Assembly (NCBI GenBank): GCA_964421015.1
Contig: CAYQUS010000004.1
Span: 53,744 to 117,743, forward strand
Reading direction: 5' to 3'
Source of the DNA: an uncultured Planctomycetia bacterium
GTDB taxonomy: Bacteria; Omnitrophota; Gorgyraeia; Tantalellales; Tantalellaceae
DNA length: 64,000 nt
Part shown: positions 8,970 to 52,386 of the stretch, one piece after another
Layout: each line of letters opens with the position of its first letter
How positions within the stretch are numbered: the first letter of the stretch is position 1
The notes under the pieces: generated by a model
The model's database searches: none
Seen by the model: only the letters and a program-made list of their open reading frames with translations
Told to the model about the DNA's origin: nothing
Translations under genes and position numbers: made by a program

Positions 8970-10394
8970 TTATTCTTTTAACACTTTTATCTGAAAAGGG
9001 TTATCAATTATCATTTCCGTCCCGGAAAGTGTTTTCTGGACCTTACCGAAAACCTCTACGGTTTTTCCATTATATCCATTTAAAGGATCGACGGCTTCAT
9101 CGTAAAAAAATCGCAAGTTCCTCGAAGGTATAATGATCCTCAGTTTTTCTTTCCCTTCGCCGAACATAAGACTTAGCCGTCCGGGAGATACTTCTGCCCC
9201 GGTTATCCTGTCCCTGATAAAACAATAAGAACCAGAGTAAGCAGAAGCTTCTTCGGCCTTGATTTTCGGGGCCCTCCCCCATATCCCTCTCCCGGAGGCA
9301 ACCGCTTTCTGCTGAGCCTGGTTCAAGGCCTTATAATATCTCACATTGGGAGGAAAAGTATATACGCTCGCCAACCCCTCCTCGATAAGTTTCAAATTTA
9401 CCATTTCCCCATCGGCGTAAACATAAGCCAGGTATCTGCCGTACTTATCCTTTATGTCCTGATCAAACTCAAGCGAAAGTTCTTTTCCCCTTACAAGCTC
9501 CTCATTTCTTTCCTTGGCCTCCACGGCTAACATTTCGGGAGAAAAAACCCACTCCGACCCTTGTTTTAGACGCGTTTCAGGAGCATCTATCCCCGTATAT
9601 CTGATCCTCTCTCCGGAGAAAAGTTCCACCGTATCACCGTCTATTACATATCGCGCCATCTGTTTTTTCCCCGAAAGCCGCTCGAATGAACCCTCGGCGC
9701 AACTTACAAGCGAAAAAAGGGTAAGAACGAGAAGAAGAAGCGCGCCTAACCTGCCGGATATCTTACGGCCTTTGGCAAAAAGACATTTCCCGCTGACAGG
9801 GCATTCCCCGCAAAGAGGCCTTATAGCGCGGCACACTTTCCTGCCATGCGATATTAGCACATTAGTGAGGTCCCCCCATTTGTCCCTGTCGAAAATTTTC
9901 ATAAGATCTTTCTCTACCCTGACAGGATCCGCGTTCCCGGTAAACCCTATCCTGCCGGAAACCCTCTTGACATGCGTATCGACTGCTATGCCTTCTATCT
10001 TACCGAATCCGTGATAAAGCACTATGTTGGCCGTTTTTCTGGCCACCCCGGGAAGGCTTACGAGTTCTTTCATGGTACCGGGAACCTTACCTCCGAAACT
10101 TTTCTCTATTTTTCTGGCCGATCCTATTATGTAGCGTGCCTTGCTCCTGTAGAAACCCGTAGACTTTATTATCCTCTCAATATCTCGCTGGCCAGCCGCC
10201 GCGATTTTTTCTATAGTCGGGTATTTTTTAAAAAGTTCCGGAGTGACCATGTTGACCCTTTTGTCGGTGCACTGAGCCGATAGGATCGTCGCTATAAGAA
10301 GCTCGTGAGGTTTCTGGTACTCGAGCGCTGTCGTGGATCCGGGGTAGGCTTTAGAAAGAATGCCGTAGATCTCGGAGGCTATCTTCTTGTTCAT
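8970..10394 (-). CDS. nth: Endonuclease III (Nth, 4Fe-4S) fused in frame to a thermonuclease (SNase) domain and a C-terminal domain of unknown function, through a hydrophobic lipoprotein-signal-like segment
   Basis: Residues 1-210 are EndoIII with CX6CX2CX5C. Residues 215-232 (LGALLLLVLTLFSLVSC) are hydrophobic and lipobox-like. Residues 240-375 are SNase (YVIDGDTVEL...YTGIDAPE). Residues 376-474 are unassigned. No canonical internal start precedes the hydrophobic segment. Confidence 0.7.
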   Translation of the reverse strand: MNKKIASEIYGILSKAYPGSTTALEYQKPHELLIATILSAQCTDKRVNMVTPELFKKYPTIEKIAAAGQRDIERIIKSTGFYRSKARYIIGSARKIEKSFGGKVPGTMKELVSLPGVARKTANIVLYHGFGKIEGIAVDTHVKRVSGRIGFTGNADPVRVEKDLMKIFDRDKWGDLTNVLISHGRKVCRAIRPLCGECPVSGKCLFAKGRKISGRLGALLLLVLTLFSLVSCAEGSFERLSGKKQMARYVIDGDTVELFSGERIRYTGIDAPETRLKQGSEWVFSPEMLAVEAKERNEELVRGKELSLEFDQDIKDKYGRYLAYVYADGEMVNLKLIEEGLASVYTFPPNVRYYKALNQAQQKAVASGRGIWGRAPKIKAEEASAYSGSYCFIRDRITGAEVSPGRLSLMFGEGKEKLRIIIPSRNLRFFYDEAVDPLNGYNGKTVEVFGKVQKTLSGTEMIIDNPFQIKVLKE

Positions 10395-10395
10395 T

Positions 10396-12177
10396 CTAGC
10401 TCCGCCTGAAACGTTTTTCCAGCTCTTTCAAGGAAATTTCAATTGTGGTGGGACGGCCATGAGGACAAGTGAACGGAAGCTCGCAACTTTCTAGCTGCGT
10501 TAACAGATCGCTCATTTCCTGGCAACTCATCATGTCGCCGGCTTTCACGGCCGACCGGCAGGAGACAAGCTTCACAAGCTCTTCCATACATTCCATCTCC
10601 CCGGACCCTGTATGCGCAAGATCGGATATGACATCTTTTACCGCTGTTTCAAGCTGGTCCGGCTTTATCGCGGCGGGAACCGATCTTATCACAAAGGATT
10701 TTTCGCCGAACGCGTCAATTTCAAATCCCAGCCGGGAAAGCCCCGGAACTATCTGTCGCATCACGGCGGACTCCGACGGCGAGAGATCTATCCTCAAAGG
10801 GAAAAGAAGGGTCTGCTTCTCCAGAGAACTCCCGTTCAGAGTCTTTGAAAAAAGCTCGTACAGCACACGCTCGTGGGCCGCATGCTGATCCGTGATCATT
10901 AGCTCTTCGCGGGTGACCCTGACGATGTATGAAAGCCCTAACTGGAACAATCTTAAATGGCCATTCCCTTGAGAGTGAAAAACTTCCGCGACAGCGCCCC
11001 ACGAACCAACGCTCCCGAGCCCCCCCGTCCTTGCGGAATTCACCCCATAATCAAACTCCGCCTGCTCTTGCGGTGAGCTCAAGATCTGCTCTCCCGCGAT
11101 ACTTTCCGACAAAACATCACTTTCTTTTTTAATGGCTGCGGGATAGGCGGAACTCTCTCCCGAAAAGACCTTTATATCCGCATTTTTCAGGTCTTCAAAA
11201 CTTTTTTTCACAGCCCGGGAGATAAGCCCTTTTACCTCGTTCTCGTTCTCAAACTTTATTTCTGTCTTTGAGGGATGTACGTTAACATCTATTCGGCCGG
11301 GATCGATCGTTATGAAAAGCAAGCCCCACGGATATCTTCCCCTCTCAAGCAGACTCCGGTAGGACGAATAAACGGCGTCGCCGAGAACTCTGCTGCGGAC
11401 AGACCTGCCATTTACAAAGAAAAACTGACCTCTTTTGTCTTTTTTGGTGAATGACGGCACGCTCACAAAACCTTCTACGACGATACCCTCTTCCGAAAGA
11501 GAGATCGGTGTCATCGCCTTTGGCACGTCCTCACCCATTATCATCCCCACGCGAGAAAGCGTATCAAGCCCTTTTGGGGCCTCTATCAAGGTTCTCCCTC
11601 CATGTATAAGCCTGAAGCTTATATCGGGCCTGGAAAGCACAAAATCCGAAAAAACATCTATTATTCCTGAGACCTCCGTGGATTCTCTCTTCATGAACTT
11701 CTTTCTGGCCGGAACGTTGTAAAAAAGGTTTCTTACCTCTATGGTAGTGCCTCTGTCCCTGGCGGCGGGCCGCTCTCTCTGCACTACCCCGCTCTCAACA
11801 TACATGTATATACCCGCGGGGTCCTCCGCCCGTTTAGTTACGATATCTATCTGCGAAACGGCTGCTATGCTCGCCAGGGCCTCACCCCTAAAACCCAGTG
11901 TTGTTATGTTCCCCAGATCTGTAATTCCGCGTATCTTGCTCGTGGCGTGGCGCTTGAATGCCATGCCGACATCCTCTTTGCCCATACCTGAACCGTTGTC
12001 CGCAACGCGTATGAGATTATGGCCTGACCGGTCTATTTCCACCTCCACGCTGTCAGCCCCCGCATCTATAGAGTTCTCAATAAGTTCCTTAACGGCTGAA
12101 GCCGGGCGTTCCACCACTTCCCCTGCGGCTATTTTGCCTATAGTGTCCTCATCAAGCATTATTATGCGAGCGCTCAT
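10396..12177 (-). CDS. mutL: DNA mismatch repair protein MutL
   Basis: GHKL ATPase N-terminus (KELIENSIDAGA) and C-terminal dimerisation/endonuclease region. 593 aa. Confidence 0.9.
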   Translation of the reverse strand: MSARIIMLDEDTIGKIAAGEVVERPASAVKELIENSIDAGADSVEVEIDRSGHNLIRVADNGSGMGKEDVGMAFKRHATSKIRGITDLGNITTLGFRGEALASIAAVSQIDIVTKRAEDPAGIYMYVESGVVQRERPAARDRGTTIEVRNLFYNVPARKKFMKRESTEVSGIIDVFSDFVLSRPDISFRLIHGGRTLIEAPKGLDTLSRVGMIMGEDVPKAMTPISLSEEGIVVEGFVSVPSFTKKDKRGQFFFVNGRSVRSRVLGDAVYSSYRSLLERGRYPWGLLFITIDPGRIDVNVHPSKTEIKFENENEVKGLISRAVKKSFEDLKNADIKVFSGESSAYPAAIKKESDVLSESIAGEQILSSPQEQAEFDYGVNSARTGGLGSVGSWGAVAEVFHSQGNGHLRLFQLGLSYIVRVTREELMITDQHAAHERVLYELFSKTLNGSSLEKQTLLFPLRIDLSPSESAVMRQIVPGLSRLGFEIDAFGEKSFVIRSVPAAIKPDQLETAVKDVISDLAHTGSGEMECMEELVKLVSCRSAVKAGDMMSCQEMSDLLTQLESCELPFTCPHGRPTTIEISLKELEKRFRRS

Positions 12178-14822
12178 TTTTTATCCCCGGTAATTTTTTG
12201 TGCCGTTGCTCCAGATGAAAGCTCTTTTTTTATTTCCGCTATGGCCTGTAAGGCCTCCATCGGTGTCATCCTGTCCGTATCCATATCCATTATCCTCTCC
12301 GCGATACCCGAGGACAAGGACTTTTCCCCAAAAAAATCCAGCTGTTTTTCCGATCCGGGAATTTTTTCTATGAATCTTGACCTTACATTCCCGGCAAAGG
12401 AGTCTCTATGCAGATTTGCCAGTATTTCCCTTGCCCTTTTTACCACCGCCTCAGGCAGACCCGCCAGCTTGGCTACATGTATACCAAAACTTTCGTCGCA
12501 ACTGCCTTTCTGAACCTTATAGAGGAAAATTATCTGATCCTCCCATTCCTGGACGGCCAGATGATAATTTACCACTCCTCTCATTACCTCTGAAAGCTCC
12601 GTAAGCTCATGGTAATGGGTCGCGAACATGGCCTTGGCGCCTTTAAGTTCGCCGTGTATGTATTCAACCACGGCCCACGCTATCGAAACTCCGTCAAAAG
12701 TACTGGTACCACGGCCAACCTCGTCCAGCACTATAAGGCTTCTCTCTGTGGCACTATTAAGAATATTGGCGGTCTCTATCATTTCTACCATAAAAGTGCT
12801 CATTCCCTGGTAAAGCCTGTCCGAAGCGCCTACCCGGGTAAATATCCGGTCAACTATCCCGATTTCAGCCGACGACGCCGGGACAAAGCTTCCCATCTGG
12901 GCCATTATGGTTATAAGAGCCACTTGTCTTATAAAAGTGGATTTCCCGGCCATATTGGATCCGGTTATTATGAAGACTCTCTCCTCGTCCGTATCCATAA
13001 AACAGTCATTACTGACAAACTCCTTACCCTTGAGTATCCTCTCGAGAACAGGGTGTCTCCCTTCTTTTATCGACATAACCCCGGAAGAGGTAACTTTCGG
13101 GCGAACGTACCTGTTGTTGAACGCCGTCTCGGCCAGCGCCGCGATAACATCTATCTTTGACGCGGATTCCGAGGCCTGCCTCACATTTTCTATACCCCCT
13201 GCCACTCTTTCTCTGAGCCGCACAAATATCTCATATTCAAGGTTCTTTATCCGCTCTTCGGCCCCGAGTATCCTATCCTCCTGTTCCTTGAGCCCTTGAG
13301 TGACAAAACGCTCCGCGTTGGCCAAAGTCTGTTTCCTTATGTAGTCAGCGGGAACGCTGGGAAGATTGGAATTGGTTATCTCTATATAGTACCCGAAAAC
13401 CCTGTTATATCCCACTTTAAGGGAATTTATACCGGTTCTCTTGGCCTCGTTAACCTGAAAGTCCACAAGCCAATCCCGCCCGGAACTCACAAGCTTCCTG
13501 AGCTCATCCACTCCCTGATCATACCCGTCCTTTATTATCCCCCCCTCTTTGAGTGCGGTCGAAGGATCCTCCCTCAGGCATGACCTTATATCAGCTATCA
13601 CTGAAAAAAAATCCTCCATACCCGAGGCCATATCAGCCAGGCTACCGGGAAATTTTTCCTTTGATAGTTTCACCATCATTCCGACTTTCTCAAGAGAATC
13701 GGCCAGCGACAGCATATCCCTTGGGTTTGCCGTGCCAAGCGCCACCTTGTTGGCGAGCCGCTCTATGTCATACATCCCGTCAAGGATCTCGCGCGTATCT
13801 ACCCTGACCTGATTATTATCGTGAAAAAACTCCACAGCATCGAGCCTCTCGGATATTTTCACGGTATCAAGCAGGGGATTCAGAAGCCATCTTTTCAGCT
13901 CCCGTTTCCCCATAGGGGTCTTCGTCTTGTCCAACACTTCGTAAAGTGTTCCCGAGGAAGTAAGGTCCTCCTGATTCTCCACCAGCTCCAGATGGCGATG
14001 CGATACCCTGTCCAATGTCATATACTCCGTAACATTGTAAACCCGCATCGACCTGACATTGCCAAGCGAGTTCTTCTGAGTGTCTTTAAGGTACCTTAAA
14101 AGCGCTCCAGCCGCACCGATCCCGGATCCCATCGCCGAACAGCCGAACGATTCAAGAGTTTTAACCTCAAACTGCCGTCTAAGTTCCTCCTCAGCTGTCA
14201 GAGAGTTAAAAGTCCAGTCTTCCCGGATAGTTATTGTCCCGAGGCCGGCCTCCCGTATCTCCTTCATTTCTGCAGAGTCTCTGAACGATTTAGGAATAAT
14301 GGTTTCAGCCGGACAGATCTTATAGATCTCAGGAAAAAGCCTCTCGGTACTGTCCACTTCTGTCAGCCTGAACTCCCCTGTGGAAATATCAGCATAGGCT
14401 ATACCGAACCCGCAGGAGTTAAAGTTAAGCGACATTATGTAGCTATTGGAGGCTTCAGTAGAAAACCCTTCCGCTATGAATGTTCCGGGAGTTACAATAC
14501 GCGCTATGCGACGCCCAAAAATCTTTTTCCCTTCCTCTGCGGCCTCTTCTATCTGCTCGCATACGGCTACTTTTTTCCCGCTTTTTATGAGCCTGGCTAT
14601 ATAGTTTTCTGCCGCATGATGCGGAACCCCACACATAGGCACCTTGACGCCCTTGTGCTGTCCCCTGGAAGTTAAAGTTATGTGCAGTATCCGGGAGGCC
14701 TCTACGGCATCCTCGAAAAACATCTCGTAAAAATCCCCAAGCCTGAAAAAGAGAATAGCCCCCTCACATTCCTTCTTTATCTCAAGATACTGGCGCATCA
14801 TGGGAGTGAGGTTATCGCTCAT
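12174..14822 (-). CDS. mutS: DNA mismatch repair protein MutS
   Basis: 882 aa with Walker A GSNMAGKST and the characteristic MutS domains. Confidence 0.9.
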   Translation of the reverse strand: MSDNLTPMMRQYLEIKKECEGAILFFRLGDFYEMFFEDAVEASRILHITLTSRGQHKGVKVPMCGVPHHAAENYIARLIKSGKKVAVCEQIEEAAEEGKKIFGRRIARIVTPGTFIAEGFSTEASNSYIMSLNFNSCGFGIAYADISTGEFRLTEVDSTERLFPEIYKICPAETIIPKSFRDSAEMKEIREAGLGTITIREDWTFNSLTAEEELRRQFEVKTLESFGCSAMGSGIGAAGALLRYLKDTQKNSLGNVRSMRVYNVTEYMTLDRVSHRHLELVENQEDLTSSGTLYEVLDKTKTPMGKRELKRWLLNPLLDTVKISERLDAVEFFHDNNQVRVDTREILDGMYDIERLANKVALGTANPRDMLSLADSLEKVGMMVKLSKEKFPGSLADMASGMEDFFSVIADIRSCLREDPSTALKEGGIIKDGYDQGVDELRKLVSSGRDWLVDFQVNEAKRTGINSLKVGYNRVFGYYIEITNSNLPSVPADYIRKQTLANAERFVTQGLKEQEDRILGAEERIKNLEYEIFVRLRERVAGGIENVRQASESASKIDVIAALAETAFNNRYVRPKVTSSGVMSIKEGRHPVLERILKGKEFVSNDCFMDTDEERVFIITGSNMAGKSTFIRQVALITIMAQMGSFVPASSAEIGIVDRIFTRVGASDRLYQGMSTFMVEMIETANILNSATERSLIVLDEVGRGTSTFDGVSIAWAVVEYIHGELKGAKAMFATHYHELTELSEVMRGVVNYHLAVQEWEDQIIFLYKVQKGSCDESFGIHVAKLAGLPEAVVKRAREILANLHRDSFAGNVRSRFIEKIPGSEKQLDFFGEKSLSSGIAERIMDMDTDRMTPMEALQAIAEIKKELSSGATAQKITGDKK

Positions 14823-51579: not shown

Positions 51580-52386
51580 TTATCCCGATACTTTATAAGT
51601 GATACCCTCGCGACTTCCCTCTGCCGGGTATTTATTTATCTCCTCTTTGGCCGCGGCTATCCTTTCGTACAGATACGGATGGCTGCGGAGAAAATACACC
51701 CATTTCGCATCCCCTCCAAGCCGCTGTAATTTCTCGAGGAATGTAACTATGGCGTTCGGGTCATATCCCGCCTGATACATGTACTTTATGGAAAGCCTGT
51801 CAGCCGCGTATTCGTCCTGTCGCGAAAACCCGTTGGCCGCCAAAGTGTAAACAACGTTGGCCGCCTGCGAAAAATACTGCCATGCCTGGTCTTTTTTATC
51901 GGCGGGCCGCGTATCTAAAAGATATGCCAGGTTAAGGGCCATCTCGGCGCCGAGCCCTTTTTCCACCATTTTCATCACATGCCTTGCCTCATCATGGCCC
52001 ATCTCATGGGCTATAACCGCGGCAAGCTCGTCATCCGTAGCCGCGGCCAGAAGGCCCGTGGAAACCACTATGTAACCGCCTCCCGGAGTGAAGGCCTGTA
52101 TTTCCTTATCCTCGTAAACTATTATGTGTTTGTCGCGGATACGCGGAGAACCTATGGGAGAGGCCAGAGCGCGGGCCGTCTCAAGGGCCCGGGCATCCTT
52201 AACCAAGACTTTTCCCTGAAGTTTAGCTCTCAGGGTATTGATCGCGATGGAATCTTCCTGCTCTAGAGAAAGCCAGGCAGCCTCGTTTTTCTGAGTAGCA
52301 GGATTGTAATAGGTCGCGCAGCCCGAAAAGACCGCGCACATGAAAACCGCCAGAAAAAAATTTAAATACCTCAACGCCCTCATCAT
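51580..52386 (-). CDS. M48-family zinc metallopeptidase lipoprotein
   Basis: Lipobox FSGC; HEMGH zinc motif (AHEMGHDEARH). Confidence 0.75.
   Translation of the reverse strand: MMRALRYLNFFLAVFMCAVFSGCATYYNPATQKNEAAWLSLEQEDSIAINTLRAKLQGKVLVKDARALETARALASPIGSPRIRDKHIIVYEDKEIQAFTPGGGYIVVSTGLLAAATDDELAAVIAHEMGHDEARHVMKMVEKGLGAEMALNLAYLLDTRPADKKDQAWQYFSQAANVVYTLAANGFSRQDEYAADRLSIKYMYQAGYDPNAIVTFLEKLQRLGGDAKWVYFLRSHPYLYERIAAAKEEINKYPAEGSREGITYKVSG

Follow-up and report, generated by a model that had tools for sequence, protein, structure and literature searches.

A recent fusion of an endonuclease III gene with a lipoprotein thermonuclease gene in an uncultured Omnitrophota bacterium

Introduction

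Canonical endonuclease III (Nth), as known from Escherichia coli (PDB 2ABK) and Geobacillus stearothermophilus (1P59/1ORN), has an HhH-GPD fold, a catalytic Lys120 with an Asp, and a CX6CX2CX5C iron-sulfur cluster loop, and its chain ends 4-14 residues past the last cysteine of that loop. Here we describe an open reading frame (ORF) in which all of these elements are found in residues 1-207, but in which the chain then continues through a membrane segment and a further 240 residues. This fused ORF encodes 474 amino acids and lies at 8970..10394 (stop codon 8970-8972) on the minus strand of a 64,000-nucleotide stretch of contig CAYQUS010000004.1, from an uncultured bacterium of the Omnitrophota (assembly GCA_964421015.1); we refer to the whole stretch as the window, and all features of the fused ORF given below are on its minus strand. 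The added part has its own described counterparts, namely stand-alone lipoproteins in which the same signal peptide and lipobox are followed by a staphylococcal nuclease (SNase, thermonuclease) domain with an intact active site and by a C-terminal OB fold. The fused ORF differs from these proteins in that its signal is internal, in that ATA stands in place of the start codon, and in that 211 residues of a cytoplasmic enzyme come ahead of it. Other lipoprotein or membrane-anchored thermonucleases presumably include YncB and YokF of Bacillus subtilis and Nuc and Nuc2 of Staphylococcus aureus.

A large cytoplasmic N-terminal domain followed by one transmembrane segment and an exported C-terminal part is a common bitopic topology, seen in RseA, FecR and RodZ. 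An earlier note on this DNA, made from the sequence alone, had called such a topology unusual for the fused ORF; it is the presence of a lipobox 232 residues into the chain, rather than the topology, that is unusual. RseA and FecR, which are cut by a site-1 protease and then by RseP, are among the closest parallels to the cytoplasmic N-terminal domain, single transmembrane segment and exported C-terminal domain predicted for the fused ORF, and also to its predicted fate, in which LspA would cut on the outer side and a site-2 protease (S2P) could clear the transmembrane stub that is left. They differ in that they have no sequence kinship with the fused ORF, for which no regulatory role is implied and for which processing is a prediction. 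Processing of viral polyproteins by host signal peptidase is likewise well established, and the structural polyproteins of flaviviruses and alphaviruses may be regarded as analogous, as one ORF gives two differently localised products through a cut at an internal signal by signal peptidase. These are, however, proteins of eukaryotic viruses that depend on signal peptidase I in the endoplasmic reticulum, whereas the fused ORF would use Lgt and LspA and came about through the accidental joining of two cellular genes.

The fusion is real

The list of ORFs bears out the earlier reading of 8970-10394 as a single frame of 474 codons. That the Nth-SNase fusion is real and not an artefact can be stated with great confidence, because a second, independent assembly has the same junction. 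In the Logan assembly of SRR27544757 (locus L002) the same gene block aligns to the window without gaps over 13.4 kb at 99.37% DNA identity, and of the 85 substitutions that separate the two, 12 are in the fused ORF (6 synonymous, 6 not) and none is at the junction, which is identical in both. The fused and unfused states are one base apart, and a base missed in sequencing or assembly at the junction would be sufficient to produce the one from the other. Such an error is nevertheless very improbable here, as two independent assemblies agree on the junction, the longest homopolymer at the window junction is 5 nucleotides or less, and a second fused lineage, described below, is represented by four distinct and independent sequences. 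On the identical junction of L002 and these four sequences, sequencing error was rejected.

The two halves are in the same frame in L002 as well, and no ATG, GTG or TTG is found in frame between codon 187 and Met246. A missed canonical internal start was rejected on this basis, and the proposal that this is a true in-frame fusion, rather than two adjacent genes with an overlooked start, is upheld. Because there is neither a stop codon nor a canonical internal start, one chain beginning at the nth start must be made. There was no match to a promoter consensus near the junction, and a separate nuclease transcript from an internal promoter was dropped as a candidate since no promoter-like site lies by the junction.

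We note that an in-frame ATG does occur at Met246 (9657-9659), after the lipobox, at a position that is not conserved in homologues; initiation there would yield a cytoplasmic nuclease without a signal. An NCBI record from another assembly, annotated as 'thermonuclease family protein, partial' (P0386, HPN72740.1), has exactly Met246 as its first residue.

Both enzymes are intact in sequence

The first half of the protein is a member of the Nth family, the nuclease half is a member of the thermonuclease family, and the last domain is an OB fold. The Nth module (residues 1-207; 9774..10394) was delimited with Pfam, NCBIfam, PDB matches and an AlphaFold2 model. That it is complete, as first proposed, is confirmed by a whole-protein score of 240.1 bits against NCBIfam TIGR01083 (nth), which is above the equivalog cutoff of 211.7, and by the cysteine motif of the [4Fe-4S] cluster, C188-X6-C195-X2-C198-X5-C204 (9783..9833), which was found by regular expression and is matched by the Pfam EndIII iron-sulfur motif (PF10576) at residues 188-204. 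Pfam HhH-GPD (PF00730) matches residues 34-168 with 95 bits, and the half as a whole aligns end to end with the endonuclease III structures 1P59, 1ORN and 2ABK at E=1e-43. The catalytic residues are present as K120 in GVARKTA and D139 in VDTH, both of which align to 1P59; the equivalent residues of E. coli Nth we take to be K120 and D138.

The SNase domain (residues 245-372; 9279..9662) follows the hydrophobic stretch, as the earlier note had it. It was delimited by its Pfam match (PF00565, residues 263-372, 77.8 bits against a gathering threshold of 21) and by alignment with S. aureus nuclease, and the half matches staphylococcal nuclease in the PDB at E=1.7e-17. In the PDB alignment the motifs DGDT (252), RYTGIDAPE (265) and YGRYLAY (318) map onto D19/D21, R35/D40/E43 and Y85/R87 of the S. 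aureus enzyme, such that D254, D270, R265, E273 and R320 are the counterparts of its Ca2+ ligands and catalytic residues D21, D40, R35, E43 and R87. The position of T41, a backbone ligand in S. aureus nuclease, is occupied by Ala271. The C-terminal part of about 100 residues, previously left unassigned, can now be identified: residues 373-474 (8973..9278) form a five-stranded closed beta-barrel with a helix between strands 3 and 4 and structurally match known OB folds, of the nucleic-acid-binding type.

An AlphaFold2 model of the full-length protein has three confident, mutually independent domains, with a predicted template modelling score of 0.53; the predicted local distance difference test score is above 90 in the Nth module, while the linker 213-235 is disordered or a low-confidence helix. 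In this model the Nth and nuclease modules look independent of each other. Both enzymes are intact as judged from sequence.

Neither half shows signs of decay in the sequence comparisons that were made. All 66 family-invariant columns of the nuclease half are kept in the window protein, and the ratio of divergence in the SNase-OB part to that in Nth is 1.34-1.58 for pairs that include the window, within the 1.11-2.02 of unfused pairs; no acceleration of either half was detected by this divergence-ratio test.

An internal lipoprotein-type signal

Between the two enzymes lies a former lipoprotein signal peptide, with an h-region at L216-S228 and a lipobox at L229-V230-S231-C232 (together 9699..9749), delimited by hydropathy and by a lipobox regular expression. 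The LVSC at the end of the hydrophobic stretch had been described as lipobox-like, and both assignments hold: residues 216-231 are the sole hydrophobic segment of the 474-residue protein (Kyte-Doolittle 2.77 over 15 residues) and LVSC is its sole lipobox match. Four positive charges (K208, R210, K211 and R215) stand before the hydrophobic segment, and the sequence conforms to a PROSITE PS51257-type pattern ([LVI][ASTVI][GAS]C after an uncharged h-region and a positive n-region). C232 aligns with the lipobox cysteine of 8/8 close stand-alone homologues, all of which start with a lipoprotein signal peptide; the earlier comparison of the segment with a lipoprotein signal was therefore apt, as these homologues of the C-terminal half begin with the same kind of signal peptide. 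The ORF list of the window contains one further ORF that passes a crude filter for N-terminal lipoprotein signals, of ~268 amino acids at 52386 on the minus strand (MMRALRYLNFFLAVFMCAVFSGC).

In its sequence, the middle segment thus has every feature of a lipoprotein signal peptide except an N-terminal position. In N-terminal signals the cysteine is expected within about the first 15-40 residues, and here it is residue 232; only a start at ATA212, which would put the lipobox cysteine at position 21, would bring it within that range. As such, we do not class the fused ORF as a canonical lipoprotein precursor, though we expect it to behave like one.

Origin of the fusion

Stand-alone relatives of the C-terminal half are 260-290 amino acids long, 44-56% identical and mostly from Candidatus Omnitrophota, and residues 212-474 are collinear with such SNase-OB lipoproteins (P0004, P0005, P0008, P0009 and others). 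In a survey of loci from one genome per species together with JGI metagenomes, nth was found directly upstream of a separate SNase-OB gene in 12 loci (L003/L090, L004, L005, L006, L009, L084, L085, L086, L091, L092, L104 and L105) and fused to it in 2 lineages only (window/L002 and L001/L171). The earlier note had allowed that homologues might consistently be two genes with an internal start that had been missed. The first part of this stands, as homologues are nearly always two genes; the second does not, since the separate genes, whether adjacent or overlapping, are in different frames, and the start codon is now ATA in the window, such that none was missed.

The path to the fused state can be read from these relatives. 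The Omnitrophota metagenome-assembled contig L003 has the synteny of the window, L17-mutS-mutL-nth(210 residues)-SNase(279 residues)-aminotransferase-aconitase, with the difference that the TAA of nth and the ATG of the nuclease overlap in the sequence TAATG. L084, L085 and L170, the nearest relatives, have a spacer of 22 nucleotides from the last iron-sulfur cysteine codon to the nuclease ATG, which places the nuclease in the +1 frame, and their nth stop lies 11-17 nucleotides further on. In the window, the stretch between the Cys204 codon and the former start codon measures 21 nucleotides, as it does in L001 and L171. By this comparison, the ancestral state, which most related Omnitrophota still show, is mutS-mutL-nth followed by a separate lipoprotein nuclease gene with signal peptide, lipobox, SNase domain and OB fold, and the ancestral nth and nuclease genes are translationally coupled, overlapping by a few bases or a few bases apart in different frames. 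The window lineage then lost 1 nucleotide in the purine-rich 22-nucleotide spacer that forms the Shine-Dalgarno stretch, which placed nth in the nuclease frame and removed the nth stop.

Comparison of the junctions indicates that residues 205-215 (LFAKGRKISGR; 9750..9782) combine what was once the end of Nth with what was once the n-region of the nuclease signal peptide. Within them, the ATA codon of Ile212 (9759..9761) is at the position of the ancestral nuclease start: ATA-TCC in the window takes the place of ATG-TCA or ATG-TCT in relatives, and in the protein alignment its KIS stands opposite the KMS of P0002. A residual Shine-Dalgarno-like AAAGG lies 7 nucleotides upstream of ATA212 (9769..9773), where relatives have AAGGTGA, AGGGGAAAG or AGGA as Shine-Dalgarno sequence. 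By the same comparison, the internal ATG mutated to ATA after the fusion, and in the window lineage only. We conclude that the gene fusion is genuine and evolutionarily recent.

The second fused lineage, which is 57% identical to the window protein overall, is known from four distinct 497-residue sequences from ENA, Logan and NCBI (GCA_964518895.1) and keeps its internal ATG with an AGGA Shine-Dalgarno sequence (...GCAGGAAAAAAAATGTCTAAA). An unfused allele, L170, with a 22-nucleotide spacer and an Nth that ends in AGERNV and a stop, shares a 90%-identity protein cluster with this second fusion. A neighbour-joining tree built on the SNase-OB part places the window, with 89% bootstrap support, as outgroup to a clade of the second fusion and five unfused lineages. 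Because unfused lineages group with the second fusion while the window lies outside that clade, the sequences indicate that fusion arose at least twice independently; a single origin of both fused lineages was rejected on this tree and on the presence of the unfused L170 in the cluster of the second fusion.

The spacer of the unfused allele (L170 1440-1475) reads GGGGAAAGAA-ATG and that of the fused allele (L001 1360-1400, and L171) reads GGAAAAAAA-ATG. The fused allele has a run of eight A right before the ATG, possibly a slippage-prone site.

A word-indexed search of 5.8 billion proteins returned full-coverage clusters for the two fused lineages only. In a HMMER pass over 1.84 billion cluster representatives, a search that can miss fused proteins inside clusters with an unfused representative, the best 150 matches each covered one half of the query only. 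A widespread Nth-SNase architecture was thus not found in either search. What we describe is a rare and new domain architecture, made from ordinary parts by a well-understood accident, and not a new system.

Among SNase homologues, some (P0144-P0147, P0169 and P0189) carry an N-terminal Ada zinc-binding domain (PF02805) and so represent a further case of SNase joined to a DNA-repair domain, and others carry LTD (PF00932) or excalibur (PF05901) domains. One SNase-OB lipoprotein-like homologue of 380 residues (P0323) has an extra C-terminal extension of ~120 residues that looks like a metallophosphoesterase (...VHLTDLHY...GDIVDRG...).

Predicted processing of the fused chain

Established principles of targeting by Sec and the signal recognition particle (SRP) and of lipoprotein maturation suggest how such a chain could be handled. 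The single chain would be translated from the nth start, and the Nth domain would fold and take up its iron-sulfur cluster in the cytoplasm. As it emerges, the internal signal, with its n-region KGRKISGR, hydrophobic core and LVSC, would engage SRP and Sec as a signal-anchor with its N-terminal side in the cytoplasm, and the SNase-OB part would be translocated. Lgt would then lipidate Cys232, and signal peptidase II (LspA) would cut before it. On the outside, this would yield a mature lipoprotein nuclease no different from that of relatives; on the inside, Nth (residues 1-231) would remain tethered to the membrane by a signal-peptide tail, and S2P or an SppA-type signal-peptide peptidase may then free it. 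Removal of signal peptides from the membrane by RseP has been reported (PMC8144685). We give this full route, that is, export of the SNase-OB half through Sec, a cut by Lgt and LspA at Cys232 and an Nth left on a membrane tail, a probability of about 0.5.

On this reading the fusion would resolve itself and be nearly neutral, which would explain its two origins and its persistence, and would fit the presence of fused alongside unfused alleles within one species as well as the subsequent loss of a redundant internal ATG. It is possible, though we hold it only tentatively, that the locus goes further and encodes a natural bacterial 'polyprotein', in which production of the exported nuclease passes wholly or almost wholly through an Nth chain whose C-terminal half it forms; Lgt and LspA would split this chain, and an intramembrane protease would free Nth.

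Several points weigh against the proposed route. In the literature that was searched, we found no precedent for a lipobox or a lipoprotein signal peptide inside a chain; prolipoprotein signal peptides were reportedly internalised by engineering in the Inouye laboratory in the 1980s. Canonical lipoprotein predictors need the cysteine within ~35-40 residues of the N-terminus, and acceptance by Sec, Lgt and LspA of a lipobox behind 231 residues is a prediction. The tether from the iron-sulfur cluster loop to the membrane anchor is only 11 residues, and since this loop of Nth contacts DNA, a membrane-bound Nth may work poorly. The ratio of nonsynonymous to synonymous polymorphism (pN/pS) between the window and L002 is 0.29 in the fusion and 0.09 in nine neighbouring genes, a difference that rests on 12 substitutions in the fusion and is not significant (Fisher p=0.08). 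Lastly, the window holds just one other candidate lipoprotein.

The same observations bear on three other explanations. The chain may remain uncut if Lgt and LspA are inactive so far from an N-terminus, and would then be one bitopic membrane protein that has Nth on the inside, a single transmembrane segment and SNase-OB on the outside. A hydrophobic segment preceded by positive charges, as here, fits a signal-anchor of this orientation, the bitopic proteins named above are an ample precedent for the topology, and the literature offered none for processing at an internal lipobox. However, Lgt and LspA read the lipobox within a membrane-embedded segment at the outer leaflet, and we know of no requirement of either enzyme for a free N-terminus; the lipobox is also fully conserved, although the time since the fusion may be short. 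We therefore regard an uncut chain as unlikely, and give similarly low weight to the fusion as a mere accident, a neutral or slightly deleterious step towards gene loss in which one half is non-functional, either because the nuclease cannot leave the cytoplasm or because Nth is mislocalised to the membrane, and which is tolerated in an organism of small population and reduced genome. The rarity of the fused state (2 lineages against 12 separate-gene loci, and no two-domain match in the best 150 of 1.84 billion representatives), the polymorphism of fused and unfused alleles in one species and the raised, non-significant pN/pS are all consistent with an accident of this kind. Against it, no inactivating change is seen, the catalytic and family-invariant residues, h-region and lipobox are all intact, the relative divergence of the halves is normal, and the window lineage kept the fusion until its internal ATG was lost and has it in common between two strains.

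Alternatively, the nuclease may be made separately from the near-cognate ATA212 with the help of the residual AAAGG, the full-length chain being a minor or irrelevant by-product. The ATA coincides with the ancestral start and is preceded by AAAGG at a distance of 7 nucleotides, the second fused lineage retains an internal ATG with its Shine-Dalgarno sequence, and AUA does initiate translation in E. coli, at ~1-2% of the level of AUG (10.1101/063800). An output of 1-2% would, however, be a large fall in nuclease, and in the lack of a stop each ribosome on nth reads into the nuclease, such that the fusion chain is the major product; internal initiation would also be occluded by elongating ribosomes, and no promoter-like site lies near the junction. 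A separate nuclease from ATA212 is thus the most doubtful of these three explanations, and export with cleavage at Cys232 is the reading that we prefer.

Nothing in the enzymes themselves, or in the fusion of genes through a lost stop codon, goes beyond the textbook. The value of the locus lies in part in its being a clean and datable example, in which overlapping, coupled genes were joined by a 1-nucleotide deletion and then lost the internal start; related genomes still show every intermediate of the path, and the fusion occurred twice independently. The locus also offers a natural test of the ability of Sec, Lgt and LspA to deal with a lipoprotein signal that follows a folded, 200-residue iron-sulfur enzyme. 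Should the internal signal prove to be processed, fusions to the upstream side of secreted proteins would be nearly neutral because they are 'self-resolving', with consequences for the reading of 'Rosetta stone' inferences of functional linkage from domain fusion. Were the polyprotein reading true, lipobox recognition would be independent of distance from the N-terminus, and gene pairs with a downstream lipoprotein could fuse without cost. Annotation pipelines are likely to mislabel such ORFs, as the partial nuclease record that begins at Met246 illustrates.

Gene neighbourhood

Upstream of the fused ORF are mutS (12174..14822) and mutL (10396..12177). The earlier note rightly placed the fused ORF directly downstream of mutS-mutL; its overlap with mutL was not found, there being 1 nucleotide between the two (mutL stop TAG at 10396-10398, spacer base 10395, nth ATG at 10392-10394). 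A GGAG Shine-Dalgarno sequence lies 5 nucleotides upstream of the nth ATG (10400..10403), and because the mutL stop falls between the two, translation of nth is probably coupled to that of mutL. The mutS and mutL genes themselves overlap by 4 nucleotides (ATGA, 12174-12177).

The block L17-mutS-mutL-nth-SNase-aminotransferase-aconitase-lipB-like is kept in several Omnitrophota contigs (L002, L003, L084, L086 and L171), and its part from L17 to aconitase looks like plain synteny. In two loci, L025 (3944-5102 of the Omnitrophota chromosome CP070655.1) and L024, the order is reversed, with SNase 4 nucleotides upstream of nth; the SNase there is short (170 residues), has the lipobox LSGC and lacks an OB domain. 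Adjacency of nth and nuclease in both orders is a hint of linkage beyond chance. A functional link between the two proteins was considered and is unsupported beyond this conserved adjacency.

Elsewhere in the window, tandem matches to cobalamin-class riboswitches are found on the minus strand at 1253-1330 and 1410-1614, with scores of 51.5 bits for AdoCbl-II and 101 bits for Cobalamin.

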